Positions 1 through 12,235 of a stretch of DNA of 12,235 bases are shown piece after piece. The position numbers and the translations under genes are program-made. The DNA comes from Candidatus Hermodarchaeota archaeon (GTDB taxonomy: Archaea; Asgardarchaeota; Lokiarchaeia; Sigyniarchaeales; SOKP01), in contig JBHLLG010000084.1 of the NCBI GenBank assembly GCA_048885925.1, forward strand, positions 1-12,235. The letters are read 5' to 3'. The notes under the pieces are model-generated. The model was not told where the DNA came from. It saw nothing but the letters and a program-made list of their open reading frames with translations, and ran no database searches. Numbering within the stretch: the stretch's first letter is position 1; each line of letters opens with the position of its first letter.

Positions 1-44
1 AGAACTTCTGGAGGTCCATATCTTTCATATATTATAGCTTTCAT
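1..44 (-). CDS. 5' end of a second MDR-family NAD(P)-dependent oxidoreductase paralog, truncated by the window edge
   Basis: The minus strand from 44 reads ATG AAA GCT ATA ATA TAT GAA AGA TAT GGA CCT CCA GAA GTT = MKAIIYERYGPPEV. This matches 12 of 14 residues of the 47..1003 N-terminus ([14 protein letters not shown]) and starts 2 nt after that gene's TAG. Confidence 0.9.
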   Translation of the reverse strand, partial: MKAIIYERYGPPEV

Positions 45-46
45 TT

Positions 47-1003
47 CTATTCACCTATTGTTATAATTACATTTCCCTTTTTATGACCTTTATCTACATA
101 CCTATGAGCCTCAACTATTTGTTTCCATGAATAAGTTCTATCGATCGCTGATTTTAGTTTTCCTGCTTCGACAAGTTCCTTAAGAAATAGAAAATCTTCA
201 TATTTTATGTGCTTCTCATCACTTGAATCTTTATTAACATTCAAATAAATTCCAGTCTTTTTTAAAGCTTTTTTAGCCCGTGAAGGCTTAAATTTTCCAA
301 CAGCATCGAGTACAACATCATATAGTTCACCACTTTGGGTAAAGTCTTCTTTAGTATAATCGATTACTTCATCAGCGCCCAGAGATTTTACCAATTCTAA
401 ATTGGTTGTGCTACATACGCCAGTGACTTCTGCCCCGAAGTATTTAGCAAGTTGCACTGAATACGTACCTACACTTCCAGAGGCACCATAGATTACCACT
501 TTTTGCCCACTTTGGATATTAGCTTTCCTTATCACGATTAATGCTGTTAAACCCCCTCCCGCAACAGGGGCAGCTTCTTCAAAAGTCATATTTGCTGGTT
601 TTGGTGCCAAAATTCCATCTTTTGAAAATCTTCCTTTTGCAGTTTCTTCGGGGAAACAAATATATTCTGCATACCCTCCAAAACGAAATCCTGGAGTAGC
701 AAATACCTGATCTCCTTTTTTAAACTTTTTTACATCTTTTCCTATTTCTTCAACTTTCCCAGCTAGCTCGAGTCCTAGTATCTTTACTTTTTTTGGTCCT
801 TTTAAACCAAATGATAATCGCGCGAAAAAAGTTACCAAGGGATTGAATCGAGTAAAGCCATTTCGAAAAGTCCAATCCCCTTTTGTGACTGTTGTTGCAT
901 GGATCTTAACGAGTACTTCGTTTTCTTTTGGAATAGGTTTTTCAACCTCCATCATCTTCAATACTTCAGGAGGACCATACTTCTCATATACAATCGCTTT
1001 CAT
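47..1003 (-). CDS. MDR superfamily NAD(P)-dependent oxidoreductase (quinone oxidoreductase / zeta-crystallin-like, usually annotated NAD(P)-dependent alcohol dehydrogenase)
   Basis: GroES-like N-terminus (YGPPEVL...[11 protein letters not shown]), GLELAG, GGYAEY, Rossmann GASGSVG and C-terminal GHKKGNVII. It lacks the catalytic-Zn Cys/His and the structural-Zn Cys cluster of true ADHs. Confidence 0.92.
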
Positions 1004-1039
1004 TATTCATTTCCACATATTTTTTTATTTTTTTTATTA

Positions 1040-1501
1040 TTAAATACTGAAATCAATAAAATTATTTGAATATTCTTTTACTAATTCAAAAGTTCCATTT
1101 TCCAACCCTAAACCTGTATTATTAGGCTTTAAACGAAGGATTGGGGGGTATATTCTTTCTGCTTTCATATTATCATGAATAAATTCAACCCAGGAGTGTT
1201 CTACTTTAATATCCGCCAATTTTACATAAAAACCAGAGATAGCCTTTAAGGTAGTTTTTTTATTTTTTGATATTTCCCAATACTTAAGTAACCAGTTTTG
1301 AACCTCCAAACTTGGAACTTCCTTATTTAAAATATCACCTACAATTAAATAGTTAAATTTTTCATCAAGTAAGAATGTAGGATCAATCCTCTTTACCTTA
1401 CCTGCGTCTACATCAATATAATCTTCTAATTGATCTTGAAGCATTTCTGCAATAATTTTTGAGAAACTAATACCATTCTTATAGATTATCCATAGTTTCA
1501 C
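1040..1501 (-). CDS. Degenerate flavodoxin-like protein
   Basis: 153 aa with a GTG start. The flavodoxin-like layout is recognisable (MKLWIIY...SKIIAEML...NYLIVG...EVQNWL...GFYV), but the S/T-x-x-G-N-T FMN loop is replaced by KNGISFS. Confidence 0.6.
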   Translation of the reverse strand: MKLWIIYKNGISFSKIIAEMLQDQLEDYIDVDAGKVKRIDPTFLLDEKFNYLIVGDILNKEVPSLEVQNWLLKYWEISKNKKTTLKAISGFYVKLADIKVEHSWVEFIHDNMKAERIYPPILRLKPNNTGLGLENGTFELVKEYSNNFIDFSI

Positions 1502-1528
1502 GATAATTCACATTTTTTTTTAAAAATT

Positions 1529-1554
1529 AAAAAAAAAGATAGGATTTACCTATC
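1529..1554 (-). terminator. Hairpin plus U9 tract terminator
   Basis: The minus strand reads GATAGG-TAAAT-CCTATC-TTTTTTTTT: a perfect 6-bp stem whose loop holds the stop codon of the 1546..1635 small ORF. Confidence 0.6.
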
Positions 1555-1635
1555 ATATAATTTTACACCAATTATGTATATTACAAATGTAATAACTGCA
1601 ATCACTAAAAAATCAAGCCAAAGAAACATATACAT
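1546..1635 (-). CDS. Putative 29-aa single-pass membrane microprotein
   Basis: ATG to TAA ORF, MYMFLWLDFLVIAVITFVIYIIGVKLYDR: a roughly 22-residue hydrophobic segment then KLYDR. A G-rich GGGGGC lies about 7 nt upstream and a terminator sits at its end. Confidence 0.55.
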   Translation of the reverse strand: MYMFLWLDFLVIAVITFVIYIIGVKLYDR

Positions 1636-1824
1636 CAACGTGCCCCCATAGAAAATACTTCTCCAATTAATTAATAAATAGATGGATTGAATAGAACTTC
1701 TTTCAACTGGTTGGTTTAAAATTTAGTCAGATTAAATATCCAAATATATTAATTATTTAGCTGTAGGTTGAACGTAGAAATATATTCGGTCGCATTCCAT
1801 TTACCATTTAAGAACATAGCACAT

Positions 1825-2058
1825 ATGGAGGTTGTTATTATTATTATTAATATAGATCAAAATATTTCAAACGGATTGAATTGTCCCTGTCCTAAAACAG
1901 GATGTTCAAATCATGGAAATTGTGACAAATGCAAGAGTTATCATTCTTCTTCAAAAAGTCTTCCATTTTGTCAACGCGAGCATGGTTTTTTCACAAAAAT
2001 TTTTTATCGTAAGAATTTTGAAATGGTTCAACTGTTGAAAAGTGAGGGAAAGATATGA
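1825..2058 (+). CDS. Small Cys-rich putative metal (Fe-S or Zn) binding protein, resembling DUF6485-type proteins
   Basis: Motif CPCPKTGCSNHGNCDKCKSYH...LPFC (6 Cys, 2 His). The start is uncertain: ATG 1825, ATT near 1840 after GGAGGT, or TTG 1876. Its stop overlaps the next gene's start (ATGA, 2055-2058). Confidence 0.75.
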   Translation: MEVVIIIINIDQNISNGLNCPCPKTGCSNHGNCDKCKSYHSSSKSLPFCQREHGFFTKIFYRKNFEMVQLLKSEGKI

Positions 2059-2897
2059 AAAGAGCGTTAATTGTATATGACTCTGTATATGGAAACACAA
2101 AAAAAGTTGCGATGTCATTAAGTCGAGGATTAGAAGCAGGAGGTATCTATGTTGATTGCTATTTCATCCAAGATCTTGATTTAGTATCAATAACTAATTA
2201 TGATGCTATAGGAATTGGAGGTCCTACCCACTTTCATGGAGCTTCAAAACCTATTAAGTCATTTTTAAAAAAAATTAATCATCTGAATATAGAGAAGAAG
2301 CAGGTATTTGTTTTTGAAACTAAAGCAGATTTTAGATTAGCTGGATCTTCAGCAAAAAAAATCATAAAATACCTAAAAAAGATGAAAATGGAAATTATTC
2401 ATCCTCCTATCACAGGAATTGTTTTCGATAAAGAAGGACCACTAAAGAAAAATACTTCAGATGTTATGGAACAAATTGGATTGAAGATTTCAGATAAGCT
2501 AAATAATAATGTTATTCATGAAAAACATACCTATAAAAATAATGAATTGAAAAAGGCAAATAGTTATATCTTTTTGAATCGAATAAAATGGATCCTCTTA
2601 GCTGGCGGTCCATTATTTTTCTTTATTCGAGCATTATATATGGCAAGCACTGGAGGAGATTGCTTTGGTACAATAAACCCATTATTTTCATGGTTTCTTC
2701 TACTATCAGAAATCACCATTTCAGGAATAGCAGGTTTTTCAGGGATATTTGGTTTATTATTAAGGATAAAAGGAGAAAAACAACGAATTATAACAAAGAA
2801 GGTATACCTACATAGAATTATATTATTTGCTGGATTTTTAAGTTATATTATACATTTTATAAGAGTGGCAATTTGGATAAGTCTATGCGTAATATAA
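2055..2897 (+). CDS. Flavodoxin domain protein fused to a C-terminal domain of about 3 TM helices
   Basis: Intact FMN loop YDSVYGNTKKVA, IGIGGPTHFHG, VFVFETK and GPL in the first ~150 aa. A polar linker is followed by three hydrophobic segments (WILLAGGPLFFFIRALYMA; LFSWFLL...IFGLLL; IILFAGFLSYII...LCVI). Confidence 0.88.
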   Translation: MKRALIVYDSVYGNTKKVAMSLSRGLEAGGIYVDCYFIQDLDLVSITNYDAIGIGGPTHFHGASKPIKSFLKKINHLNIEKKQVFVFETKADFRLAGSSAKKIIKYLKKMKMEIIHPPITGIVFDKEGPLKKNTSDVMEQIGLKISDKLNNNVIHEKHTYKNNELKKANSYIFLNRIKWILLAGGPLFFFIRALYMASTGGDCFGTINPLFSWFLLLSEITISGIAGFSGIFGLLLRIKGEKQRIITKKVYLHRIILFAGFLSYIIHFIRVAIWISLCVI

Positions 2898-2914
2898 ACT
2901 ATTTTTTTTAAAAT

Positions 2915-3838
2915 TTATTTTATCTTTTTTTTGTATAACAAATTTTCTTTCCAAGTATCAAAATATAATACCTTATGCATAATATCAAACATTACAGTAT
3001 CAACATTTTCTTTTTTAATATTTTCAAGTATTTCATTTAGTTCTTTCATATTATTAACCCAAACCCAACAAATAATAATATTTGGAAGATTACTAAATGT
3101 CCAACAATAAAAGATATTCGGGCTATATTTCTCATTTAGATGTTTAGCGAGTTCATTCTTTTCCACCGTAGGACTTATAGTTATTTGAATTAAAGCAAAA
3201 ATATCCTCTGAAGCTTGAGGATTAAAATTAATTGATAATTCTATTATCCCTTCCTCAATTAATCTGGTTAAACGACGACGAACTGTATTAGGAGTGCTAT
3301 TAACATCTTCTGCAATTTCTGAGATTGATTTTCGTGAATCATTCTTTAATGATCGAACAATTTCTAAATCTAAATTATCATAATTCATGGATCTTGACTG
3401 AGGAATGATATATGGTATAGGTACAGAATAGAATACACCAGAAAGCAGTCCAATTTTTGGAGATTGGATTTCTGTAATTTGAGAAACAAAAGAGGAATAA
3501 TCCTCTAATTGATGAATACTCTCTAGCATAGAACCAATATACATATAATTTCTACTTGAAAGGATAATCTGCCAGGTATTTTTATGTTCTCCTAATTCAG
3601 ATATTACTTTGTCCATATCCTGAGCGTTACTTTGCCCAAAAATAAATGCATAAATAGCATTTATGGCATATGGTTTCAATCTGGCTGTAAATTTTTCTAT
3701 AGTCCTTAGATCTACTAAAAGTTGAACTCTTTTATACACAGCATTGACGGATAAGCCTAATTGATCCGAAATCTCTCGATATGTTAGCCTTGAATTATTC
3801 ATTAAAAGTAAAATTATCTTAAGATCAATCTCATCCAT
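2915..3838 (-). CDS. Lrp/AsnC family transcriptional regulator with two tandem wHTH+RAM modules
   Basis: Module 1: MDEIDLKIILLLMNNSRLTYREISDQLGLSVNAVYKRVQLL. Module 2: DNLDLEIVRSLKNDSRKSISEIAEDVNSTPNTVRRRLTRLIEEGII. Each is followed by an alpha/beta effector domain. Confidence 0.92.
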   Translation of the reverse strand: MDEIDLKIILLLMNNSRLTYREISDQLGLSVNAVYKRVQLLVDLRTIEKFTARLKPYAINAIYAFIFGQSNAQDMDKVISELGEHKNTWQIILSSRNYMYIGSMLESIHQLEDYSSFVSQITEIQSPKIGLLSGVFYSVPIPYIIPQSRSMNYDNLDLEIVRSLKNDSRKSISEIAEDVNSTPNTVRRRLTRLIEEGIIELSINFNPQASEDIFALIQITISPTVEKNELAKHLNEKYSPNIFYCWTFSNLPNIIICWVWVNNMKELNEILENIKKENVDTVMFDIMHKVLYFDTWKENLLYKKKIK

Positions 3839-3896
3839 AAATATAAGAAATAAAAGAAAAAAAAAAAGATTATTTACTTAAGTTTTTAACTAAAAC

Positions 3897-4196
3897 TTAA
3901 AATTTAGAGTTTTTTTTTGAATGCTCTCTATATTTGCGTTTAAAATACTTAACTAATTTGGTCAGAAGAAAGGTTCCCAATAATGCCATAGCAAGTAAAA
4001 TTATTGTACTATACGGTGTAAATGAACAATGAGCATAGTATCCCAAATAACATGGTTTACTTGCCTCATCCGGAATCATTGTTATAATACTAAAGACAAT
4101 TCCGCATATTATTAAGGATAAAACAAAAATGGTATAAAAAATAATAAAGAATGACTTGATAATTATTTTTGACCAATTCACTAATTTCACTTTCAA
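3897..4196 (-). CDS. Small 2-TM membrane protein with a Cys/His loop
   Basis: TTG start preceded by a GGTGA SD-like site. Two hydrophobic helices flank ASKPCYLGYYAHCSFTPYST, and the C-tail is basic. Confidence 0.8.
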   Translation of the reverse strand: MKVKLVNWSKIIIKSFFIIFYTIFVLSLIICGIVFSIITMIPDEASKPCYLGYYAHCSFTPYSTIILLAMALLGTFLLTKLVKYFKRKYREHSKKNSKF

Positions 4197-4213
4197 ATTT
4201 TTTCACCAATTTT

Positions 4214-4234
4214 TTAAGAAATTAAATTTCTTAA
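4214..4234. promoter_or_regulatory. Perfect inverted repeat, candidate operator
   Basis: TTAAGAAATT-A-AATTTCTTAA (10-bp arms), between a minus-strand TATA-like TTATATAT (about 4257-4264) and the start of 3897..4196. Confidence 0.45.
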
Positions 4235-4549
4235 TTTATAGACAGAGTCTAACTAGATATATAACTTAGTTTGTACTAAGGGAGAGAAATCAATGAATAT
4301 TTCTATTAGTAATGATAAAAATCTAATCCAATCAGTGTAAAAATTGATCATTTTTCTTATATTCTTGATAATTCCTATTAAAAAGTTAAAAGACAAATAG
4401 GAATTAATTCAAATTAATAATTTTAGCAGAATAAAAAATAAAAATAAAAAAAAAGGTAAGAATCGATAACAATCGCAAAAACAGATTTTACAATTTATTA
4501 TTTATCTCTTATTTAGTATTTTTTTTATGGATTTAAATAGACTAAAAAT

Positions 4550-4810
4550 TTAAAAACGAAAATTTCTTCCTCTGCCTCTATTATATGGATTAGGAGGAGC
4601 TTTTTCCGTCACTACAACATTACTAGCTTGCGGTCCTTTCTTACCATCTACTACTTCAAATTCAACCTTATCATTTTCATTTAAAGTTTTATACTCATCA
4701 TCTCGACCAGCTAATGCGGTGTAATGAACAAAAACATCGTTTCCCTCTTCAGAATTTATAAATCCGAAGCCTTTTCGGCTGTTAAACCATTTTACTGTTC
4801 CTTTTACCAA
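4550..4810 (-). CDS. csp: Cold-shock domain protein (CspA family) with an Arg/Gly-rich C-tail
   Basis: [11 protein letters not shown]1 KGFGFI, RNP2 DVFVHY, YKTL.E..KVEF and [10 protein letters not shown]. Start is probably TTG at 4810, alternatively TTG 4822. Confidence 0.95.
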
Positions 4811-4917
4811 TTTTAAAACCAAATTTTACATTTTCTATAAAAATTCTTTAATTTCTAAAGAATCACTTATAAATAGAATTCAAAGATAATAAATTTTGAC
4901 TTTTTTGGGACATTTTC

Positions 4918-4968
4918 AAAAAAGACTTATTTTCTCATTACTAAAATTAATGTGAATAAGAAAGTCTT
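4918..4968 (-). terminator. Long imperfect hairpin followed by a short U-tract, downstream of the kinase
   Basis: On the + strand AAGACTT (4922-4928) pairs with AAGTCTT (4962-4968), with an inner TTCTCATTA/TAATGTGAA stem. On the minus strand the stem runs into T residues. Confidence 0.35.
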
Positions 4969-5016
4969 GAAATAAATTTAATTTTGAGGTAACGACTAAA
5001 TCTGTTTTTCCTTATT

Positions 5017-8000
5017 TTAAATTAACGGGAATGATATAAAGAATGTTGACCCTTTATTTCTTCCCTCAGATTCAACCCAAATATCTCCACCGTGTAATTC
5101 TATAATCTTTTTTGATATAAATAACCCAAATCCTGAACCCTCCGCAATTATATCCATTCCTTGACCATATCTCTCTATTTTACCAAACTGTTTAAATATT
5201 CTACTCTTCTCTTCTTCTGTGAATCCGATTCCATTGTCCTTTATAGAAAGAATTATAAAGCCATTTTCAATCTCAGATCTAATTTCAATTAATCCACCTA
5301 GAGGAGTGTATTTAACCGCATTATTTAAAACATTGCTAATTACTTGATGAATTTGCTCCTTTTCAAATTGGATAATCAAATTCTCTGGCAGATAGAGATT
5401 TATTGTATGATTTCTCAGCCTTGATAATCCTTTAATTTCATTTACACAAACTCTAACCAAAAAAGACAGATCTTCTTCAGATTTATTAAGTTGAATTGCA
5501 CCAGATTCCAATTCTGCTGTTTTTAGAATATCTGCAATAAGAGTTTCAAGGCGTACGCAACCCTGTTTGATTTCGTTCAGGGTAGATATCACTAAATTAT
5601 CAAGTTTATCTCTGTGTACTTGTAACAGAAGATCAGAAAATCCCTTGATAGAGACCAATGGAGTTTTTAATTCATGTGATGTTCTTCTCAGTAATTCAGA
5701 TTTCAACTGATTTAATTTTACCAATTCTTGTTGAGCACTTATTCTTTCAGTGATGTCAACTTGTGTTACTAAGTCAGCCGGTCGACCTTCATAAATCATT
5801 GTTTTTGAGAGATTGTCAACCCAAAATAATTCTCCATTGCTTCTTATGCATTCTATTGGATAATGGATAATAACATCAGGATCACCAGTTTGTTTTTTTC
5901 TTAATTGTTCTCTTACTGTTTCTAATGATTCAGGTGCCACTGTTTTTAACATTTCACCTGGCTCCCAATTTAACATTTCCTCTTCTGTGTATCCATATAA
6001 ATTTGCCATTTCTTGATTTACATATTTTATTACATCATCCTGAATAATACATATCGCTAAAAGAGATTCCTCTGTGATTTTTCTGAATTTTTCTTCCGAT
6101 TCTTTAAGTTTTTGTTCTGCCCTTTTATTTTCGGTAATATCTCGGAATGTTCCCCAAACTCGAAGGAATTTATTATTTTCAATTACACCATAGCCATTGT
6201 TTAAGAAATATCTTTTTTCGCCATTTGGTACCATTTCAATCCCCAATCCATCAATGATGCTGTATCCACCTTCAATCATATCTCTAAATAACTGATCTAA
6301 ACTACTTGGTGTAGTTCCGAAGAGTTCTGTTAACTTAAGCCCAATAACATCTTCTATTCTATCAAATCCATAAGATTTAGCACATGCAAGATTACAATCA
6401 ACTAACATACAATCATACATGAGCTTAATTTGTTTGTCATTTGATAGATCTATTGGAATAGGTTGATCAAACTCATAACAGAAAACAGCATCAGTTGTAT
6501 TTTCAATCAAAGATCTAAAACGTTCTTCTGTTTTTCTAAGTTCTTCTTCAGCCTTTTTTCGATCAGTAATATCAATAAAAGCAACAAAAGCAGCTGGTCT
6601 TCCCTCGAAAATAATGGATCTAGTATAATTTTCAATCCAAATTAACTCACCAGACTTTTTTATACCTTTAAAAATGTAATTTCTGAGATAATCATCTGAT
6701 CCATCTTGCTTTTTTGTTGCTTGGGTAAAAACAAAATCTTTATTGTCTGGATGCACAGTTTTTAGAAATTCTCTAGGGGACCAGTTTACCATTTCATCTG
6801 TAGTATATCCAAAAATATCAGCAAACTTTTCATTAGCATATTTAATTAGATTATCCTGCAAAATTGAAATTCCTATTAATGATTGTTCTGCTATTGTCCT
6901 AAAATTTTCTTCAGATTCCTTTAACTTTTGCTCTGCGTTTATCTTATCTGTAATATCAACAGATGTTATTAAATCTGCTGGCCTTCCTCCATAATTTATT
7001 GTTTTAGAGAAATTTTCAATCCATCGAATCTCTTTATCTTTTCTTATTAAGCGGTATCGATATTGAGGAATAACATCTTTTGCTCCTGACTGCTTTTTTT
7101 TAACTTGATTTAGAACAAAATCTTTATCTTCCGGATGAATTACTTTCAAAAACTCAAAAGGGGTCCAATTTTCTATTTCTTCGCGTGAATATCCACTTAA
7201 CTGGGGTATACGGTCATTAAAGTATTTTATAAGACCATCCTGTATGACCAATATACTCATAAATGATTGCTCAGTAATAGCCCTGAAGTTTTCTTCAGAT
7301 TCTTTTAATTTTTGTTCTGCCCTTTTTTGATCAGTTATATCTCTAACAATTGCGAAAATTTTGTCTTCTCCATCAATACTTACTATTCTTCCACTCGCTG
7401 ATACATCTATATAATAACCATCTTTATGTATAGTTCGATATTCAATATACACTCTCCTCTTCTTATTTATAGCATCTTTTAATACTTCAACTGCCTTATT
7501 GATGTCATCAGGATGCATTATTTTAAATCCATTTTTACCAATAAGCTCTTCAGATCTAAATCCAGAGATATCATAGACTTGAGGGCTGATATATTGGAAA
7601 TTTCCTTTTAAATCTAAAATAATTATAATATCCATAAGATTATTGATGATATTCTTATATTTTTCTTCAGTTTCTTTTCGAGTGTTAATATCAGTAATGA
7701 TATGAACAGCTCCCATGATCTCTCTCTCGTCATTGAAGATAGGTTCAGAAGAAATTTCAACCCATGATCCATTAATTTGTCTAATGGAACTTTCTCTATG
7801 TCCCGATTCCAACATAGATTTCACAGGACACCAATCACCTGGTCCTGAAGTACCATGCACTAGCTCCCAGCAAAAATGTCCTACAATTTCATCATAATTA
7901 GACTTTCCAAACATATCTAAAGTTGCTTTATTGCATTGAAGTACTTTATAATCTAAATCAATGAGAAAAACAGACTCTTTCATCGCGTCAAGAGTTATCT

Positions 8001-8064
8001 GCCATAACTTGTTGTTATTCTCAATCTCAACTCCAATATTCTTAGGATTCGTAATGTTTTTCAA
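5017..8064 (-). CDS. Soluble sensor histidine kinase with six PAS domains (HisKA + HATPase_c)
   Basis: Six PAS/PAC units, each ending in DIT/DIN plus a coiled linker. H-box SHELKTPL, N-box NVLNNAVKY, G1 DNGIG, F-box IFKQF, G2 GSGFGL. No TM segment is evident and the exact start (TTG 8064) is uncertain. Confidence 0.95.
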   Translation of the reverse strand: MKNITNPKNIGVEIENNNKLWQITLDAMKESVFLIDLDYKVLQCNKATLDMFGKSNYDEIVGHFCWELVHGTSGPGDWCPVKSMLESGHRESSIRQINGSWVEISSEPIFNDEREIMGAVHIITDINTRKETEEKYKNIINNLMDIIIILDLKGNFQYISPQVYDISGFRSEELIGKNGFKIMHPDDINKAVEVLKDAINKKRRVYIEYRTIHKDGYYIDVSASGRIVSIDGEDKIFAIVRDITDQKRAEQKLKESEENFRAITEQSFMSILVIQDGLIKYFNDRIPQLSGYSREEIENWTPFEFLKVIHPEDKDFVLNQVKKKQSGAKDVIPQYRYRLIRKDKEIRWIENFSKTINYGGRPADLITSVDITDKINAEQKLKESEENFRTIAEQSLIGISILQDNLIKYANEKFADIFGYTTDEMVNWSPREFLKTVHPDNKDFVFTQATKKQDGSDDYLRNYIFKGIKKSGELIWIENYTRSIIFEGRPAAFVAFIDITDRKKAEEELRKTEERFRSLIENTTDAVFCYEFDQPIPIDLSNDKQIKLMYDCMLVDCNLACAKSYGFDRIEDVIGLKLTELFGTTPSSLDQLFRDMIEGGYSIIDGLGIEMVPNGEKRYFLNNGYGVIENNKFLRVWGTFRDITENKRAEQKLKESEEKFRKITEESLLAICIIQDDVIKYVNQEMANLYGYTEEEMLNWEPGEMLKTVAPESLETVREQLRKKQTGDPDVIIHYPIECIRSNGELFWVDNLSKTMIYEGRPADLVTQVDITERISAQQELVKLNQLKSELLRRTSHELKTPLVSIKGFSDLLLQVHRDKLDNLVISTLNEIKQGCVRLETLIADILKTAELESGAIQLNKSEEDLSFLVRVCVNEIKGLSRLRNHTINLYLPENLIIQFEKEQIHQVISNVLNNAVKYTPLGGLIEIRSEIENGFIILSIKDNGIGFTEEEKSRIFKQFGKIERYGQGMDIIAEGSGFGLFISKKIIELHGGDIWVESEGRNKGSTFFISFPLI

Positions 8065-8246
8065 GATATCCTTATCCCCAATTTTCTAATTGTAATTAAT
8101 ATAAGATCAATTAAGACTTTAAAAAATGATATAAAAGGATATATTTAACAATTTGTACTTTTTTCTTAAAACGAGCTGTCGCAATTGAATTAAAAAAAAT
8201 CTTTATCTTCAAATAATCTAGATTAATATTATGTGATTCAAGGTTT

Positions 8247-8268
8247 CAGAAATGTTTTAATATAAAAA
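8247..8268 (+). promoter_or_regulatory. Candidate archaeal BRE/TATA promoter for the leuS leader transcript
   Basis: CAGAAA-TG-TTTTAATATAAAAA lies about 25-30 nt upstream of ATG 8289, compatible with a near-leaderless start of the uORF. The AT-rich background weakens this. Confidence 0.4.
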
Positions 8269-8288
8269 TATCTATAATTTTTATAAGA

Positions 8289-8375
8289 ATGAATTCAAAT
8301 AAGACTGCTTCAAAGATGGACTTAAAGGAAAAAATGTCCTTGGTTGATTTACTCGCAGTTTTATTATCATTATGA
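8289..8375 (+). CDS. Putative Leu-rich leader peptide (uORF) of leuS
   Basis: MNSNKTASKMDLKEKMSLVDLLAVLLSL*, with in-frame ATGs at 8289, 8316 and 8334 (the last preceded by AAGGA). Six of the last 11 sense codons are Leu (TTG, TTA, CTC, TTA, TTA, TTA). Confidence 0.6.
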   Translation: MNSNKTASKMDLKEKMSLVDLLAVLLSL

Positions 8376-8431
8376 GCGAAACAAATCCCTATAATCTTTT
8401 TCTTTTACAATTTCCACGGATTTGTTCGCTT
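8346..8431 (+). promoter_or_regulatory. Attenuator-like alternative RNA stems with a U-tract
   Basis: Segment 2 (GAGCGAAACAAATCC, 8374-8388) pairs with segment 3 (GGATTTGTTCGCTT, 8418-8431; 14 bp, one bulge) or with segment 1 (GATTTACTCGC, 8346-8356). TCTTTTTCTTTT lies at 8395-8406. Confidence 0.6.
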
Positions 8432-8530
8432 GGCTGATAAATTTAATTGAAAGAGATTTTAGGTGATGATTCCTTAAAAAGAATAAAATTTGAAATAAAG
8501 AATAAGAAATCAAGGTCGTGCTTAAATAAA

Positions 8531-11419
8531 ATGTATAATCCCCAAGAACTTGAAAAAAAATGGCAGGATAAATGGCAACGGGCTAGAATTTTCGAAGCAA
8601 ATCCAGATTCAAATAAAGAAAAAATTTTTATAACTTCGCCATACCCTTATGCTTCAGGTACTTTACATATAGGGCATGGGCGGAGTTTTATTAATGGAGA
8701 TATTTTTGCGAGGTATTATAGAGCAAAGGGTTATAATGTCTTATATCCAATGGCATTTCACATAACAGGTACTCCTGTACTTGCAATTTCTTCTTCAATA
8801 GAAAGAGAAGATCAAAAAACAATCTCTAGAATGAAAGAATATGTGTCATTGCATACAGAAGATCAACAAGAAGTAGAAAAAGTTGTACAAAGTTTCGTAG
8901 ATCCATGGAATGTTGTTAAATATTTTTCTAATACAATGAAAATTGATTTTAAGTCTGTTGGAATGAGCTTGGATTGGCGAAGAGAATTTACTACGGGTGA
9001 TAAAATTTACAATAAATTTATAGAATGGCAATATTTTCATTTGAAAGAGAGAGGTTATCTTGAAAAAGGTGAATATCCTATTCTCTATTGTCCTCATGAC
9101 AATAATGCTGTGGGTGAAGATGATATTTCACGGGGAGATGAGTTGGATCTAAATATTAATCAATATATTTGTATTAAATTCCCTTTTGAAGAAGGATTTC
9201 TTGTTGCTTCAACATTACGACCTGAAACTATTTATGGAGTAACAAATATATGGATTAAGCCAGAGGGAAAGTATATTAAAGCTTCAGTAAATAAAGAAAT
9301 TTGGTACATTTCCGAAGAAGCAAAATTCTTATTAGAAAACCAAGGAAAGCAAATTGAGATTTTAAAATCCTTCAATGGAGAAGAAATTATTGGAAAAAGT
9401 GCTACTGATATTTATGGGATCAAAGAAATCCCTATTTTATCAGGCGATTTTGTTGATACATCAACAGCAACTGGAGTTGTATATTCAGTTCCTGCTCATG
9501 CTCCTTATGATTATGTCGCTTTAATCGATTTACAGAAAGATAAAGAATCAATTAAAAGATTTAATTTAGATAAAAGACAAATTGAATTGATTTATCCTAT
9601 TCAAATAATTGATTTAGAGGGATTCAAGGATTTTCCTGCAAAAATATATTGCGATAAATACGAAATTGCTTCACAACAAGACAAAGAAAAGTTAGATTTG
9701 GCGACTAGTGAAAATTATAAGGACGAATTTTATAATGGAGTTCTTAATGAGAAATGTGGTAAATATCAAGGAATGAAGGTTAGTGAAGCTGCCAAACAAG
9801 TATCGATAGATTTGATAAAAGAGAGTAGAGCAGATAAATTATATATTCCAATGACAAAGAATCTCAAATGCAGATGTGGAACGAAAATTATTGTTTCAAT
9901 TCTTAAAGATCAATGGTTTCTTAACTTTGAAGCCGGAGAATGGAAAAAGAAAGCATTCAAATGCTTAAATAGTATGGCGATAGTACCAAATAAATTTCGT
10001 TTAAATTTTGAAAATGTTTTCCATTGGTTAGAAAAAAGACCTTGCGCTAGGAAAAGAGGTTTAGGTACCAAATTGCCATTTAATAAAGAATGGATAATAG
10101 AATCATTGAGTGATTCTACAATTTATATGGCATTCTATACAATCTCTTATAAAATTAAGGAATATCGAATTAAACCTGAGCAACTAATACCAGAATTTTT
10201 TGATTATGTATTTTTAGAAAAAGGTGACGTTACCAAATTATCAAAAAAAATCAACGTTGAAGAGAAAAGTCTTAAAGAAATGCAAGAAGAGTTCCTTTAT
10301 TGGTATCCTGTAAACCATCGTCATACAGCCATTATGCATATTTCTAACCATTTAAGTTTTTATATTTTTCATCACGTGGCTATTTTTCCAGAAAGATATT
10401 GGCCAAAAATAATCTCTTTAATTGAACCTGTAATAGTTGAAGGACAAAAAATGGGAAAATCAAAAGGAAATGTTATTCCTCTAGCAAATATTCAAAAAAG
10501 GTATTCAGCTGATTTATTTAGGTTTTATATTTCTCATGGTGCTGACTTTGGAGTTTATATGGATTTTAGAGAGAAAGAAATAGAATCAGTTAAAAACCAT
10601 ATCTACAAATTTTATAAATTTATGCATGAAAAAGTTATCCAAACAAACAAAATAGTACCAGAATTTAAAAATATCAAGTCCAAATATTCAAAAGTCATGT
10701 TATCAAAAATAATTAAGAAATTCATAGAGGCAGAAAAGGCTATAGGAGAATTCAACATAAGAAGATATCTACAAATTTCATTTTATGAAGTTTTTAATTT
10801 AATCCAGGAATCATATAGGGATAATGACAATATAGATGATTTTTTAATAATCTTTAAATTAATATATCCAGATTGGCTGAAAATTCTTTCATTAACTGTA
10901 CCACACTTATGTGAAGAATTATGGGAAATTGCTGGAAATAATGGTTTTATATCAATGGGAACCTGGAGCGAATTTGATGAGAAATATATTGAAAATAATC
11001 TTGAACAGGAATTTGATTATATTACTAATATTGTTGAAGATATTTTCAATATTAAGAAAATAGTAAAACCTCAAACTTCTAGTCCAATCTATTTATATAC
11101 TGCTCCCGAATGGAAATATAAAATAAATGAATTGATTTTAAAAATTGGAGATAATTTTGATGGGATAATATCTAAAATTAAAGATGATAAAAATCTGATA
11201 AAGAATAAACAACTTATCCCATTTATAAAGAATCAATTAAAAGGGAGAGTTTGGGAATCAAAATTACCCCATTTCGATGAGGTTAAATCATTAATGCAGT
11301 ATAAATCATATATTGAAAAACGTATTAATTCTACAATTATAATAAACTCTGAATTTGACCCAAAACAAAAAAGTATTAGAGCAAAACCTTTCAAACCGGC
11401 TCTTTATTTAGATCTATAA
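8531..11419 (+). CDS. leuS: Leucine--tRNA ligase, archaeal/eukaryotic type
   Basis: ELEKKWQ..W N-terminus, PYPYASGTLHIGH, DWRREFTT, CP1 editing motifs STLRPET and GVVYSVPAHAPYD, IESLSDSTIYMA, KMGKSKGN, PHLCEELW and C-terminal AKPFKPALYL. ATG 8531 fits the family N-terminus better than TTG 8447. Confidence 0.97.
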   Translation: MYNPQELEKKWQDKWQRARIFEANPDSNKEKIFITSPYPYASGTLHIGHGRSFINGDIFARYYRAKGYNVLYPMAFHITGTPVLAISSSIEREDQKTISRMKEYVSLHTEDQQEVEKVVQSFVDPWNVVKYFSNTMKIDFKSVGMSLDWRREFTTGDKIYNKFIEWQYFHLKERGYLEKGEYPILYCPHDNNAVGEDDISRGDELDLNINQYICIKFPFEEGFLVASTLRPETIYGVTNIWIKPEGKYIKASVNKEIWYISEEAKFLLENQGKQIEILKSFNGEEIIGKSATDIYGIKEIPILSGDFVDTSTATGVVYSVPAHAPYDYVALIDLQKDKESIKRFNLDKRQIELIYPIQIIDLEGFKDFPAKIYCDKYEIASQQDKEKLDLATSENYKDEFYNGVLNEKCGKYQGMKVSEAAKQVSIDLIKESRADKLYIPMTKNLKCRCGTKIIVSILKDQWFLNFEAGEWKKKAFKCLNSMAIVPNKFRLNFENVFHWLEKRPCARKRGLGTKLPFNKEWIIESLSDSTIYMAFYTISYKIKEYRIKPEQLIPEFFDYVFLEKGDVTKLSKKINVEEKSLKEMQEEFLYWYPVNHRHTAIMHISNHLSFYIFHHVAIFPERYWPKIISLIEPVIVEGQKMGKSKGNVIPLANIQKRYSADLFRFYISHGADFGVYMDFREKEIESVKNHIYKFYKFMHEKVIQTNKIVPEFKNIKSKYSKVMLSKIIKKFIEAEKAIGEFNIRRYLQISFYEVFNLIQESYRDNDNIDDFLIIFKLIYPDWLKILSLTVPHLCEELWEIAGNNGFISMGTWSEFDEKYIENNLEQEFDYITNIVEDIFNIKKIVKPQTSSPIYLYTAPEWKYKINELILKIGDNFDGIISKIKDDKNLIKNKQLIPFIKNQLKGRVWESKLPHFDEVKSLMQYKSYIEKRINSTIIINSEFDPKQKSIRAKPFKPALYLDL

Positions 11420-11435
11420 TAACTTTAAAAATTAA

Positions 11436-12224
11436 TTAAACTTTATTTCTTTCTATTGCTTTTAAGATATCTAAATATTTAACGATCTCTTTAGTATCAC
11501 TCTTTCCAATACAATAATCTAACTGTTTTGTAAAATATTGATTTAATATTTTCAATTGAGGGCTTGAAATCAAAAATTTGGAACCCTCCTCAATTTGTTT
11601 ATCGAATAATGTATCTTTTACTTCTTCAATATTAAGGTTAATAATTTGAAGGGCAATCCATTCAAAGACATCTTCAATATTTTCATTTGTTTTTGCTGAA
11701 GTCTCCATATAATAAATCCCCAATTCTTTCGCTAAATCCATTCCTTCTTCGGTTGAAACTACTCTCGAATTAGATAAATCAACTTTATTTCCTACAAGTA
11801 TCAAAACTATATGCGGCAACGCTACTCGAGTAATTATATCATACCATTTTTTAACATGCTCAAATGATTCTTTACTTGTTATATCAAACACAATAATTCC
11901 AGCGCGAGAGTCTGTTAAATAATCAGGCCACAATCGTTCAAATTGACTTTGTCCTGCTAAATCCCATATCATAAATCTTACAGATGTTCCCAATTCTTTA
12001 AATGTACATTCTTTTTTAGAAATATAAGTACCTATTGTTGCTTTATAATCTGCTTTAAATACTCCATGAACGTATCTTTGAGCCATACTGGTTTTTCCAA
12101 CTCCGTTATCTCCAATTAAAGAAAGCTTGTAGACATATTCTTTTGAAAACGGTTTACCTTGGTAATAATCTAGTTTTCGTTTAATTTTTTCAAGTTCAGA
12201 ATCTCTTTTTATTTTTGGAATCAC
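11436..12224 (-). CDS. Rab-like small GTPase (Ras superfamily) with N- and C-terminal extensions, possibly 5'-truncated
   Basis: G1 GDNGVGKTS, G2 YKATIG, G3 WDLAGQ, IVFDIT, G4 GNKVDL, G5 ETSAK. The frame stays open upstream of GTG 12224 to the window edge. Confidence 0.93.
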   Translation of the reverse strand: MIPKIKRDSELEKIKRKLDYYQGKPFSKEYVYKLSLIGDNGVGKTSMAQRYVHGVFKADYKATIGTYISKKECTFKELGTSVRFMIWDLAGQSQFERLWPDYLTDSRAGIIVFDITSKESFEHVKKWYDIITRVALPHIVLILVGNKVDLSNSRVVSTEEGMDLAKELGIYYMETSAKTNENIEDVFEWIALQIINLNIEEVKDTLFDKQIEEGSKFLISSPQLKILNQYFTKQLDYCIGKSDTKEIVKYLDILKAIERNKV

Positions 12225-12235
12225 TGGACTAACTG

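Follow-up and report, generated by a model that had tools for sequence, protein, structure and literature searches.

In bacteria, the supply of a charged tRNA can be reported to biosynthetic or synthetase genes by a ribosome translating a short leader ORF, as in the ribosome-mediated transcription attenuators of the E. coli leu operon (leuL), the ilvL/ivbL leaders and the pheM leader of pheST (PMC1183508), and a leucine-rich attenuator peptide has been described for the ilv-leu genes of S. aureus (PMC5794164). Ribosome-mediated attenuation is a textbook bacterial mechanism that depends on coupled transcription and translation and on hairpin terminators. Other bacterial leaders exploit the ribosome or tRNA differently: in E. 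coli tnaC a ribosome stalled at the end of the leader ORF blocks a termination factor, in ermC/cat a stalled ribosome remodels pairing downstream in translational attenuation, and T-box riboswitches before aminoacyl-tRNA synthetase genes, including back-up copies such as thrZ, bind tRNA directly. Archaeal termination works differently, through U-tracts and a CPSF73-like factor, and our full-text literature searches found no description of an amino-acid-sensing leader-peptide system in archaea.

Using a combination of comparative genomics, covariance modeling and RNA folding, we examined a 12,235-nt stretch (hereafter the window; contig JBHLLG010000084.1 of assembly GCA_048885925.1, positions 1 to 12,235, forward strand) from Candidatus Hermodarchaeota archaeon, in which a tiny leucine-rich ORF and a folded RNA precede a leucyl-tRNA synthetase gene, leuS. 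A first-pass annotation made from the sequence alone had proposed a leucine-sensing leader-peptide attenuator here. Its observation holds and proves to be larger than first described, whereas its interpretation is only partly supported, as the conserved, apparently translated leader, the stem and the cognate-codon logic are borne out but the specific competition between helices that it proposed is not.

Results

A leucine-rich leader ORF and its putative promoter

All elements that the first-pass annotation had described, namely the uORF, the stem that begins at its stop codon and a direct repeat between the Leu-codon segment and the 3' strand of that stem, are present at the positions given for them (Table 1). 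The uORF carries 6 Leu and 2 Val in its last 11 codons (LVDLLAVLLSL), the stem comprises 14 pairs with a single bulged A8379 and includes a 9-nt perfect core, and the two copies of the repeat match at 9 of 11 positions. One correction concerns leuS, which starts at ATG 8531, since all 17 same-genus orthologues align from Met1. An N-terminal extension from TTG 8447 was rejected because the open frame upstream of Met1 varies from 2 to 41 codons among orthologues. The leuS product scores 932.6 bits against TIGR00395, above the cut-off of 648.5, and its closest relatives are titled Promethearchaeota or Promethearchaeia. Scans of the window returned no Rfam family at E up to 1, T-box included, and no tRNA gene.

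Table 1. Features of the leader and the downstream gene, in window coordinates (all on the + strand).
Feature	Position	Sequence	Description
Putative leader promoter	8248-8264	AGAAA (8248-8252); TTTTAATATA (8255-8264)	BRE-like element and TATA box, the TATA box 34 to 25 nt before the uORF ATG; predicts a transcript that starts at or within a few nt of the ATG
Leader ORF	8289-8375	MNSNKTASKMDLKEKMSLVDLLAVLLSL	28 codons; Leu codons TTG 8340, TTA 8349, CTC 8352 (rare, 4.9% of Leu codons), TTA 8361, TTA 8364, TTA 8370; stop TGA 8373-8375
Helix P1, 5' strand	8298-8308	AATAAGACTGC	Codons 4-7; pairs with 8355-8365
Direct repeat, first copy	8346-8356	GATTTACTCGC	Leu-codon segment
Helix P1, 3' strand	8355-8365	GCAGTTTTATT	Codons Ala23 to Leu26, in the proposed regulatory tail
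Helix A, 5' strand	8374-8388		Begins inside the stop codon; pairs with 8418-8431
Helix B, 5' strand	8388-8402	CCTATAATCTTTTTC	Pairs with 8449-8463
U-tract t1	8395-8406	TCTTTTTCTTTT	In the loop of helix A; 5' strand of the distal part of helix B; candidate archaeal termination or aCPSF1 signal (function inferred)
Helix A, 3' strand	8418-8431	GGATTTGTTCGCTT
Direct repeat, second copy	8419-8429	GATTTGTTCGC	Within the 3' strand of helix A
A/U-rich linker	8437-8448	ATAAATTTAATT	Possible weak second U-tract (t2) or TATA-like internal promoter
Helix B, 3' strand	8449-8463	GAAAGAGATTTTAGG	Sequence conservation ends a few nt further on
leuS	8531-11419		Archaeal-type leucine--tRNA ligase, 962 aa

In the single sequence the case against chance is weak. 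The 261-nt fold has z = -1.78, with 12 of 200 shuffles folding at least as well, and with Leu at 9.9% of codons we calculate a probability of about 3e-4 for 6 or more Leu in 11 codons, before correction for multiple testing. The comparative evidence, which the first-pass annotation had named as a test of its proposal, is far stronger. The uORF is intact, at 27-29 aa, in 18 of 18 same-genus leuS loci, with indels that come in threes, and the roughly 185 nt from the ATG to helix B are far better conserved than the flanks in these loci, whose LeuRS proteins are 66-86% identical. Codon-position entropies of the uORF are 0.51, 0.49 and 0.65, and column entropy rises from 0.51 at the 3' strand of helix B to 1.09 after it. 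Across a wider set of 88 aligned copies, frame 0 is open from the ATG to within 9 nt of helix A in 88 of 88, while frames +1 and +2 stop early in 88 of 88 and 80 of 88, an ATG is present in 87 of 88, and the ATG-to-helix distance varies from 64 to 93 nt. The stop codon lies exactly 3 nt before the reference G, abutting helix A, in 69 of 88 copies.

Upstream of the ATG, position-specific counts over 113 copies show A-rich positions from -41 to -35, TTTWWATA at -34 to -27 and a conserved TATAATA at -7 to -1, and the region is also conserved in the 18-sequence alignment. The BRE/TATA motif thus sits at leaderless distance, and the uORF is probably leaderless, although the transcription start is predicted from sequence alone. 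A search of sequencing runs returned no RNA dataset that contains the stretch, and three metatranscriptome runs of the same study contain next to none of the sampled sequence words, which says nothing about expression.

Three covarying helices

Three helices covary, namely P1, in which early codons pair with tail codons, helix A, which is the stem of the first-pass annotation, and helix B, in which the conserved U-tract of the helix A loop pairs with a purine-rich strand downstream. In an alignment fitted to the covariance model, 37 of 39 pairs change on both sides (11 of 11 in P1, 11 of 13 in A and 15 of 15 in B), with a covariation score of 0.302 against 0.153 for shuffles (0 of 500 as high) and 0.044-0.090 for slid partners. 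In a structure-blind MAFFT alignment, 32 of 39 pairs do so (8 of 11, 11 of 13 and 13 of 15), with a score of 0.232 against 0.159 (0 of 500) and 0.064-0.118. Helix A was not part of the search model. Among same-genus sequences alone, 5 of 15 pairs of helix B change on both sides. Examples of paired P1 strands are ACTGC/GCAGT before LeuRS, ACTAC/GTAGT before the FrhB and small-ORF classes described below, and AATAATAATA/TATTATTATT before LeuRS_C, one of the LeuRS types.

By contrast, the pairing of 8346-8356 with 8376-8387, which the first-pass annotation had proposed as segment 1:2 in competition with 2:3, does not covary, with a score of 0.144 against 0.141 for shuffles and 170 of 500 shuffles as high, and we rejected it as a conserved element. 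An inner hairpin (AAGGA/TCCTT, 8325-8329 with 8337-8341) was also dropped, as only 72% of cells pair among 18 sequences.

The U-tract columns are nearly invariant. The T-run is 5 or longer in 69 of 88 copies, and starts 24 nt after the first base of the stop codon in 40 of 88 and 23-26 nt after it in 59 of 88. There is no bacterial-style terminator in which a G+C hairpin is immediately followed by a U-run: the only strong U-run lies inside the loop of helix A, the T-run after helix A has a median of 3 and starts about 10 nt away, and no U-run follows helix B. The linker is conserved, and its score with a promoter matrix is only slightly above controls, at 2.9 against 8.8 for true promoters and 2.2 for coding controls.

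Folding calculations suggest that helix A forms first as the RNA is made (p = 0.91 once 8431-8448 is made), and that masking a ribosome footprint on the last Leu codons brings A to 0.0 and B to 0.91. The 5' arm of A lies within a stop-codon ribosome footprint. At equilibrium, however, helix B wins even without a ribosome (A 0.16, B 0.76), so that the A state is only kinetic. A and B share just base 8388 and could partly coexist as a pseudoknot, which the folding tool cannot model, and their exclusivity is our steric inference. Control of leuS translation initiation is not favored, as the predicted unpaired probability of 8515-8540 stays at 0.65-0.67 whatever the ribosome mask. The last roughly 65 nt before leuS are not conserved and carry no Shine-Dalgarno-like motif at the usual spacing, nor is such a motif conserved among orthologues.

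Distribution and match between tail and downstream gene

A first covariance model (R1) hits 96 of 150 genomes of the order, all in one Promethearchaeota (Lokiarchaeia) family, f1 (95 of 130). A second model (R2) hits 100 of 125 f1 genomes and 0 of 24 genomes in six sister families. Two orthologous leuS loci in a sister family (L018 and L019; 45-46% identity) have no Leu-rich uORF, and the window's own genome holds only one other hit, weak and degenerate. Related genomes are not independent samples, and all of these are metagenome bins.

The tail tracks the downstream gene among the 124 R1 hits examined. Before LeuRS, the last 10 residues are 57-67% Leu and 0-3% Ile, and Leu is the commonest of L, I and V in 72 of 72 copies with a readable uORF, out of 74 copies, across three unrelated LeuRS types that all pass leucine--tRNA ligase equivalog cut-offs. 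Before an FrhB-TrmB fusion, the last 10 residues are 46% Ile, and Ile is commonest in 16 of 17 copies with a uORF, out of 18. Before the small-ORF class, which encodes a small acidic protein with no Pfam match and no usable Atlas hit, they are 39% Val and 37% Leu. In the LeuRS and FrhB classes the next ORF starts 23-143 nt after the element. Model R2 added further classes, with Val-rich tails 25-52 nt before an acyl-CoA dehydrogenase (3 copies) and an I/V/A/L tail 56 nt before IlvE (NF009897, 422.6 bits against a cut-off of 307). Single genomes, for example those labeled G022, G097 and G145, carry several copies with different tails. Conversely, eleven R2-only copies and one further copy, L071, carry a frame-shifted tail (..IRSIIKRE) with no hydrophobic run, and several partner genes have no evident tie to the amino acid in the tail, namely the FrhB-TrmB fusion, the small acidic protein and an FwdA-like gene about 362 nt away. 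As tail codons are also constrained by P1 pairing, part of the composition may be structural.

Discussion

Taken together, we favor, with moderate confidence, a model in which this cis-acting leader lets a translating ribosome report the supply of charged tRNA-Leu to leuS, as one member of a family of branched-chain amino-acid leaders in one family of Asgard archaea. In this model, when Leu-tRNA is plentiful the ribosome finishes and leaves, helix A forms first and displays the U-tract in its loop, and transcription is ended or the RNA is cut there at an archaeal U-tract/aCPSF1(FttA)-type signal. When Leu-tRNA is scarce, the ribosome would dwell on the last Leu codons and cover the 5' arm of helix A, rather than a separate segment 1 as first proposed, so that the U-tract pairs into helix B and is hidden, and RNA polymerase reads on into leuS. 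Our data establish the conserved promoter, the open frame, the three covarying helices, the conserved U-tract with its spacing and the match between tail amino acid and downstream gene, whereas translation of the uORF, the alternation of A and B, termination at the U-tract, the response to leucine and its direction, and the leuS transcription start are inferred. Published work is compatible with such an output step, in that U-tracts together with aCPSF1 set archaeal termination efficacy (PMC8716108) and steric exclusion of FttA by a coupled ribosome has been proposed (PMC11616081). Still, archaeal polymerases are not known to need hairpins and no hairpin is directly followed by a U-run, leaving the link between structure and termination hypothetical, and an acyl-CoA dehydrogenase induced by valine starvation would be odd.

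The best surviving alternative, which we consider possible but doubtful, retains the sensor and reverses its sign. Here, a ribosome that keeps pace with RNA polymerase shields it from the termination factor at the U-tract, so that plentiful Leu-tRNA gives read-through, while a ribosome stalled on the Leu codons leaves the polymerase uncoupled and it terminates at t1; the accessory LeuRS and the catabolic partner genes (aminotransferase, acyl-CoA dehydrogenase) would then be switched on by amino-acid abundance. This sign is equally derivable from the proposal that ribosome exclusion of FttA acts as quality control of coupling (PMC11616081), and it is in keeping with the fixed distance from stop codon to U-run and with the fact that partner genes such as the acyl-CoA dehydrogenase and IlvE can be catabolic in amino-acid fermenters. 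However, it gives helices A and B no necessary role although both covary, it does not require the regulatory codons to lie right at the stop codon, and induction of an aminoacyl-tRNA synthetase by abundance of its amino acid runs against bacterial precedent.

Less likely, the locus holds two separate genes, with the 28-codon ORF encoding a small hydrophobic-tailed protein from its own promoter, helices A and B plus the U-tract forming its 3' end and terminator, and leuS transcribed from its own promoter in the linker, so that adjacency reflects synteny and not regulation. A U-tract 24 nt after the stop does look like an ordinary archaeal terminator, the linker is weakly TATA-like at a fixed place, the hydrophobic run reaches about 18 residues in some FrhB-class peptides, and some copies lie 360-530 nt from the next co-directional ORF. 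Yet the tail amino acid tracks the downstream gene, helix B needs RNA that runs 45-60 nt past the supposed terminator, the middle of the peptide is poorly conserved and varies in length from 20 to 32 aa, and the linker's promoter score is far below that of true promoters. The 11-residue hydrophobic stretch of the window peptide is too short to span a membrane (about 18-20 residues), as a type I toxin or small membrane peptide would require. In addition, the five same-genus genomes without a LeuRS_A or LeuRS_B orthologue had no R1 hit, and the one R2 hit among them that we examined, in genome G012, is a frame-shifted-tail copy beside the aminotransferase gene, not a Leu-type leader.

It is also unlikely that the leader is read by a trans-acting factor (a protein, a tRNA or a metabolite), with the overlapping ORF incidental or only opening the structure. 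Three covarying helices with a possible pseudoknot make a substantial fold, and P1 constrains the tail codons, but the absence of an Rfam match, the frame kept open despite length changes, the promoter at leaderless distance and class-specific Leu, Ile and Val enrichment that extends outside the P1 strand all argue against it, and LeuRS autoregulation cannot explain the same scaffold before FrhB, IlvE and acyl-CoA dehydrogenase genes. A chance ORF and stem in an AT-rich spacer, where a 28-codon open frame is not rare at 29% G+C and the single-sequence fold is unremarkable, is refuted by conservation, covariation and distribution across about 100 genomes.

The broadest reading, which we hold to be about as likely as not, is that archaea of one Asgard family run a branched-chain amino-acid regulon through leader-peptide attenuators, the first known in the archaeal domain, in which a ribosome waiting for charged tRNA at the Leu, Ile or Val codons of a leaderless mini-ORF decides whether a U-tract is shown to or hidden from the archaeal, eukaryote-like cleavage and termination factor aCPSF1/FttA. 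This would set expression of a back-up LeuRS, IlvE, an acyl-CoA dehydrogenase, a redox-domain transcription factor and a small acidic protein, and the device would have arisen independently of the bacterial attenuators. A family of about 150 natural variants with three covarying helices and swappable sensor codons would give a direct test, in the lineage closest to eukaryotes, of whether and how ribosome position feeds back on transcription in archaea, how U-tract or aCPSF1 termination can be regulated and how leaderless uORFs are used. It also marks an accessory LeuRS and several unannotated genes as members of a branched-chain amino-acid response, which bears on the amino-acid-fermenting lifestyle proposed for these organisms, and supplies a ready covariance model for annotating these genomes.

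Comparison with known systems

Like the S. aureus ilv-leu attenuator peptide, which controls branched-chain amino-acid genes, the leader peptide described here is leucine-rich, but the S. aureus system is bacterial, has a classic terminator and shows no sequence relation. In ermC/cat translational attenuation, a ribosome stalled near the end of a leader peptide likewise remodels downstream pairing, whereas here no Shine-Dalgarno motif or start codon of the main gene is involved in the helices. T-box riboswitches share the physiological logic of placing a second synthetase gene under control of the charging state of its tRNA; the Asgard leader, however, has no specifier loop or T-box sequence, and sensing would go through a translating ribosome and not through direct tRNA binding. 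As in tnaC, a ribosome held at the last codons of a leader ORF would hide RNA next to the stop codon from a termination factor and so allow read-through, but the signal would be a shortage of charged tRNA, not a free amino acid sensed by the nascent peptide, the factor would be aCPSF1/FttA, not Rho, and alternative helices would take part. With the E. coli leuL, ilvL/ivbL and pheM leaders, the element shares a short leader ORF with a run of cognate codons that would report tRNA charging, tail types that parallel the bacterial set (Leu only; Ile+Val+Leu; Val+Leu), a member that would control an aminoacyl-tRNA synthetase, and covarying helices that start at the end of the ORF. In contrast to these leaders, it resides in an archaeal host on an unrelated RNA scaffold, its leader ORF is probably leaderless, its proposed regulatory codons sit at the very end of the ORF and pair with its start, its U-tract lies inside the loop of helix A and is a strand of the alternative helix B rather than directly following a G+C hairpin, and its termination machinery would be archaeal, a U-tract with aCPSF1/FttA.

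Sequence context of the leader

The window is a whole 12,235-nt contig of a 3.9-Mb genome with 29% G+C, in which a 466-nt spacer separates a divergent PAS histidine-kinase gene from leuS. The observation made in the first-pass annotation, namely a short Leu-rich ORF directly upstream of leuS, a stem beginning at its stop codon and a direct repeat shared by the Leu-codon segment and the 3′ arm of that stem, holds in every detail. We place the leuS start at the ATG from whose Met1 all same-genus orthologues align, and the gene encodes an archaeal-type leucine--tRNA ligase (932.6 bits against TIGR00395, above the 648.5 cut-off). The 16 closest public relatives of this LeuRS are 64-83% identical, and twelve of them are titled Promethearchaeota or Promethearchaeia, the Asgard phylum formerly called Lokiarchaeota, while the enzyme of the cultured P. 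syntrophicum is 44% identical. Two contigs found in the same search (L200 and L192), with a 64-75% identical LeuRS, carry the titles of other taxa, a Nanopelagicaceae bacterium bin and a Thorarchaeota bin, and are probably mis-binned or mislabelled Promethearchaeota contigs. The neighboring Ras-family GTPase gene likewise fits an Asgard origin. On its own, however, the leader sequence is not compelling, as its predicted fold has z = -1.78, an Rfam search gave no match, and the Leu run has a chance probability of about 3e-4 by our arithmetic from the genome's codon usage.

Coordinates of the leader, its surroundings and related loci. Locations without a prefix are in the window; G numbers denote genomes (G000, the window's genome), C numbers contigs and L numbers extracted loci.
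Feature	Location	Strand	Remarks
Protein with two AsnC/Lrp-type HTH domains	2915-3838	-	307 aa
PAS histidine-kinase gene	5017-8064	-	1015 aa, about six PAS domains; divergent from the leader promoter
Leader ORF (uORF)	8289-8375		MNSNKTASKMDLKEKMSLVDLLAVLLSL
Helix P1	8298-8308 / 8355-8365		codons 4-7 with tail codons
Direct repeat	8346-8356 / 8419-8429		9 of 11 positions
Helix A	8374-8388 / 8418-8431		14 pairs and one bulged A
Helix B	8388-8402 / 8449-8463		5′ strand is an A-loop segment containing the U-tract TCTTTTTC
leuS start codon	8531		ATG
Ras/Roc-family small GTPase	11436-12224	-	
Second leucine--tRNA ligase gene	G000:C8:8881-11661 (L155:501-3278)		926 aa; no leader element upstream
Weak, degenerate copy of the element	G000:C3:27383-27558 (L032 and L156)	-	E 0.08-0.2 genome-wide
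leuS pieces in one same-genus genome, G021	G021:C1:1335392-1336117 and G021:C1:528255-529043		residues 1-242 behind the leader; residues 700-962 elsewhere
FrhB/FdhB-TrmB fusion, examples	L101:636-2090; L062:641-2092		about 480 aa
Small acidic protein, examples	L081; L164:518-694; L157:578-730		61 aa in L081

Conservation and distribution of the element

To ask whether the leader is conserved, we aligned 300 nt upstream of leuS from the window and 17 other same-genus genomes, whose LeuRS proteins are 66-86% identical. A block reaching from about 40 nt before the uORF ATG to about 8468 is strikingly conserved while its flanks are not, with column entropies of 0.27-0.56 inside the block and 1.1-1.2 outside it. 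The uORF is intact in 18 of 18 loci at 27-29 codons, with the consensus M-I-S-N-K-T-A-L-K-M-N-L-x-E-K-x-x-L-V-D-L-L-A-V-L-L-L-S; indels come in multiples of three, the stop alternates between TGA and TAA, and there are synonymous Leu changes.

A covariance model built from these 18 sequences (R1) found one strong copy in the window's genome and copies in 96 of 150 genomes of the order, all in the window's family, f1 (95 of 130, against 0 of 19 in three other families). A second model built from 88 copies (R2) found copies in 100 of 125 f1 genomes, in 11 of 13 f1 genera, and in none of 24 genomes from six other families of the class, with many genomes holding 2-4 copies. The analyses below cover all 124 listed R1 hits and 32 hits seen only with R2, leaving out a further 28 R2 matches. 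The second, weak copy in the window's genome has no clean uORF and lies beside a class I/II aminotransferase gene.

Evidence for a translated leader ORF and three covarying helices

Upstream of the ATG, 113 copies share an A-rich BRE-like stretch at -41 to -35, a TTTWWATA box at -34 to -27, and TATAATA at -7 to -1, which is the spacing expected for an archaeal promoter whose transcript starts at the ATG; on this prediction from spacing alone, the mRNA would be leaderless. Among the 88 strongest copies, the ATG is present in 87, and frame 0 stays open to within 9 nt of helix A in 88 of 88 although the ATG-to-helix distance varies from 64 to 93 nt, whereas frames +1 and +2 hit a stop early in 88 of 88 and 80 of 88, respectively. 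In 69 of 88 copies the stop codon sits exactly at the foot of helix A. The middle of the peptide is poorly conserved and varies in length from 20 to 32 residues, which fits a leader peptide better than a functional protein. The mini-ORF therefore looks translated, as judged from sequence alone.

Three helices covary: P1, which pairs early codons with the tail codons; A, the stem seen in the first-pass annotation; and B. Among the 18 close relatives, B already shows 5 of 15 pairs changed on both sides, and A shows one pair in three forms (C-G, U-A, A-U). On the 88-sequence alignment fitted to a model that held P1 and B but not A, 37 of 39 pairs change on both sides, in 328 cells, with a covariation score of 0.302 against 0.153 for shuffles (0 of 500 as high) and 0.044-0.090 for slid partners; in helix A, 11 of 13 pairs change on both sides. 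A structure-blind MAFFT alignment of the same 88 sequences gives 32 of 39 pairs and a score of 0.232, against 0.159 for shuffles (0 of 500) and 0.064-0.118 for slid partners. P1 changes in step with the tail, its paired strands being ACTGC/GCAGT before LeuRS, ACTAC/GTAGT before the FrhB and small-ORF classes, AATAATAATA/TATTATTATT before LeuRS_C (the bacterial-core type described below), and AATACTAATGC/GCATTAGTATT before IlvE. By contrast, the 1:2 pairing proposed in the first-pass annotation, in which the Leu-codon segment would compete with the 3′ arm of the stem for the middle segment, shows no covariation.

The tail amino acid tracks the downstream gene

Of the 124 R1 hits, 74 precede a LeuRS gene: 67 the window type, four a second archaeal type that is 33% identical (LeuRS_B; TIGR00395, 962 bits; loci L065, L069, L073 and L105), and three a bacterial-core type (LeuRS_C; TIGR00396, 951 bits; loci L091, L093 and L143). 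In the 72 with a readable uORF, Leu is the commonest of L, I and V in the last ten residues, at 57-67% Leu and 0-3% Ile. That the same Leu-rich leader precedes three mutually distant LeuRS genes in different genomes suggests that the synthetase gene has been swapped behind a retained leader. A further 18 hits precede a fusion of a 4Fe-4S/FrhB-FdhB (F420-type) redox module with a C-terminal TrmB-like HTH, a possible redox-sensing transcription factor, and here Ile is commonest in 16 of the 17 copies with a uORF (46% Ile, 20% Val, 18% Leu). In the genome G022, this fusion sits between genes that we read, from their first residues only, as a putative B12-binding mutase subunit and a putative MeaB-like GTPase.

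Another 29 hits lie beside a convergent class I/II aminotransferase gene, and in 22 of these a co-directional small acidic ORF of 50-68 residues follows the element, as found by tblastn at E of 1e-3 or better; the tails are 39% Val and 37% Leu. These small acidic proteins are the usual product of the gene behind the Val/Leu-type leaders and carry motifs such as FWKYLDY..PGEIE or DYYKDWDS..ESEDEKKL. The gene always lies tail to tail with a DapL-like aminotransferase gene, and the protein has no Pfam match and no usable Atlas hit. The remaining three R1 hits have no recognised neighbor.

The R2-only hits add further classes. Val-rich tails lie 25-52 nt before an acyl-CoA dehydrogenase (3 copies), one I/V/A/L tail lies 56 nt before a branched-chain aminotransferase, IlvE (NF009897, 422.6 bits against a cut-off of 307), and L/V tails lie about 362 nt before an FwdA-like gene (2 copies, plus L072 among the R1 hits). 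Eleven copies (loci L157-L162, L176, L178, L181, L182 and L186), together with L071, form a subclass that keeps P1 and helices A and B but reads the P1 strand in another frame, so that the ORF ends ..IRSIIKRE inside helix A with no Leu, Ile or Val run; it precedes the small acidic ORF and may be a decayed or re-purposed variant. Different tails coexist in one genome, for example in G022, G097 and G145, and the pattern is therefore not only lineage history, although related genomes are not independent.

The second LeuRS gene of the window's genome, on another contig, has a bacterial-type core (TIGR00396, 986 bits), while its last roughly 320 residues match the archaeal model. Since a gene of this type matched in nearly all the related genomes searched, the leader-linked leuS looks like an accessory copy. 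Five same-genus genomes (G004, G010, G012, G017 and G018) gave only weak paralogue-level matches to it and had no R1 hit; with R2, the hit in G012 is a frame-shifted-tail copy beside the aminotransferase gene, and G017 gave a weak hit (E 0.0034). In G021 the leader-linked leuS appears as two far-apart pieces, and the gene is either broken or misassembled.

Discussion

Our comparative sequence analysis shows that the regulatory codons are the last codons of the ORF, that the stop codon abuts helix A, and that a U-run of 5 or more, present in 69 of 88 copies, is both the loop of A and a strand of B; this U-run starts 24 nt after the stop in 40 of 88 copies and 23-26 nt after it in 59 of 88. Folding predictions indicate that as the RNA grows, A forms first (p = 0.91 when 8431-8448 has been made), whereas once 8449-8463 exists, B is favored (0.87). 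Masking a ribosome footprint on the last Leu codons or on the stop removes A (0.0) and leaves B (0.91 and 0.5, respectively). Previous work has shown that archaeal termination efficacy depends on U-tracts together with aCPSF1 (PMC8716108, PMC7515710), and exclusion of FttA by a coupled ribosome is proposed as quality control of coupling (PMC11616081).

What lies beyond these observations, including translation of the uORF, termination at the U-tract and any response of leuS to leucine supply, is our inference. We hypothesize that a ribosome that finishes quickly frees the 5′ arm of A, which then displays the U-tract, and the transcript is ended, whereas a ribosome waiting for Leu-tRNA on the last codons holds that arm, so that the U-tract would be taken into B and the polymerase would read into leuS. 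P1 would close the 5′ end behind the first ribosome. The logic would match that of starvation-induced back-up synthetases in bacteria. We consider the sensor part of this reading somewhat more likely than not, but this particular output less likely than not. Several points weigh against this reading. A and B overlap by only one base and might coexist in part as a pseudoknot, which the folding model used here does not represent, and no hairpin-plus-U terminator exists at the locus. Several partner genes have no evident tie to the tail's amino acid, P1 pairing itself constrains the tail codons, a subclass has lost the hydrophobic tail, and all genomes are metagenome bins. The interpretation advanced in the first-pass annotation, a leucine-sensing leader-peptide attenuator working through 1:2 versus 2:3 competition, is supported only in part.

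Conversely, the opposite sign of regulation follows just as naturally from the coupling idea. It is also possible that leuS has its own start, since the linker between helix A and the 3′ strand of B is faintly TATA-like. Also weighing against our reading, the 65 nt before leuS are unconserved and lack a Shine-Dalgarno motif, which about a quarter of this genome's long ORFs show at -16 to -10.

Full-text literature searches, which did not extend to supplementary files or to papers outside the collection searched, returned no archaeal leader-peptide attenuator, and none of the papers returned by one of these searches contains the word Asgard. Functionally, the element resembles the bacterial leuL, ilvL and pheM attenuators, and in the role we propose for a ribosome held at the end of the ORF it also resembles tnaC. 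It is not a member of those families in the strict sense, because the defining intrinsic terminator is absent and the scaffold and host machinery differ, and, as the Rfam search indicates, it is not a T-box.
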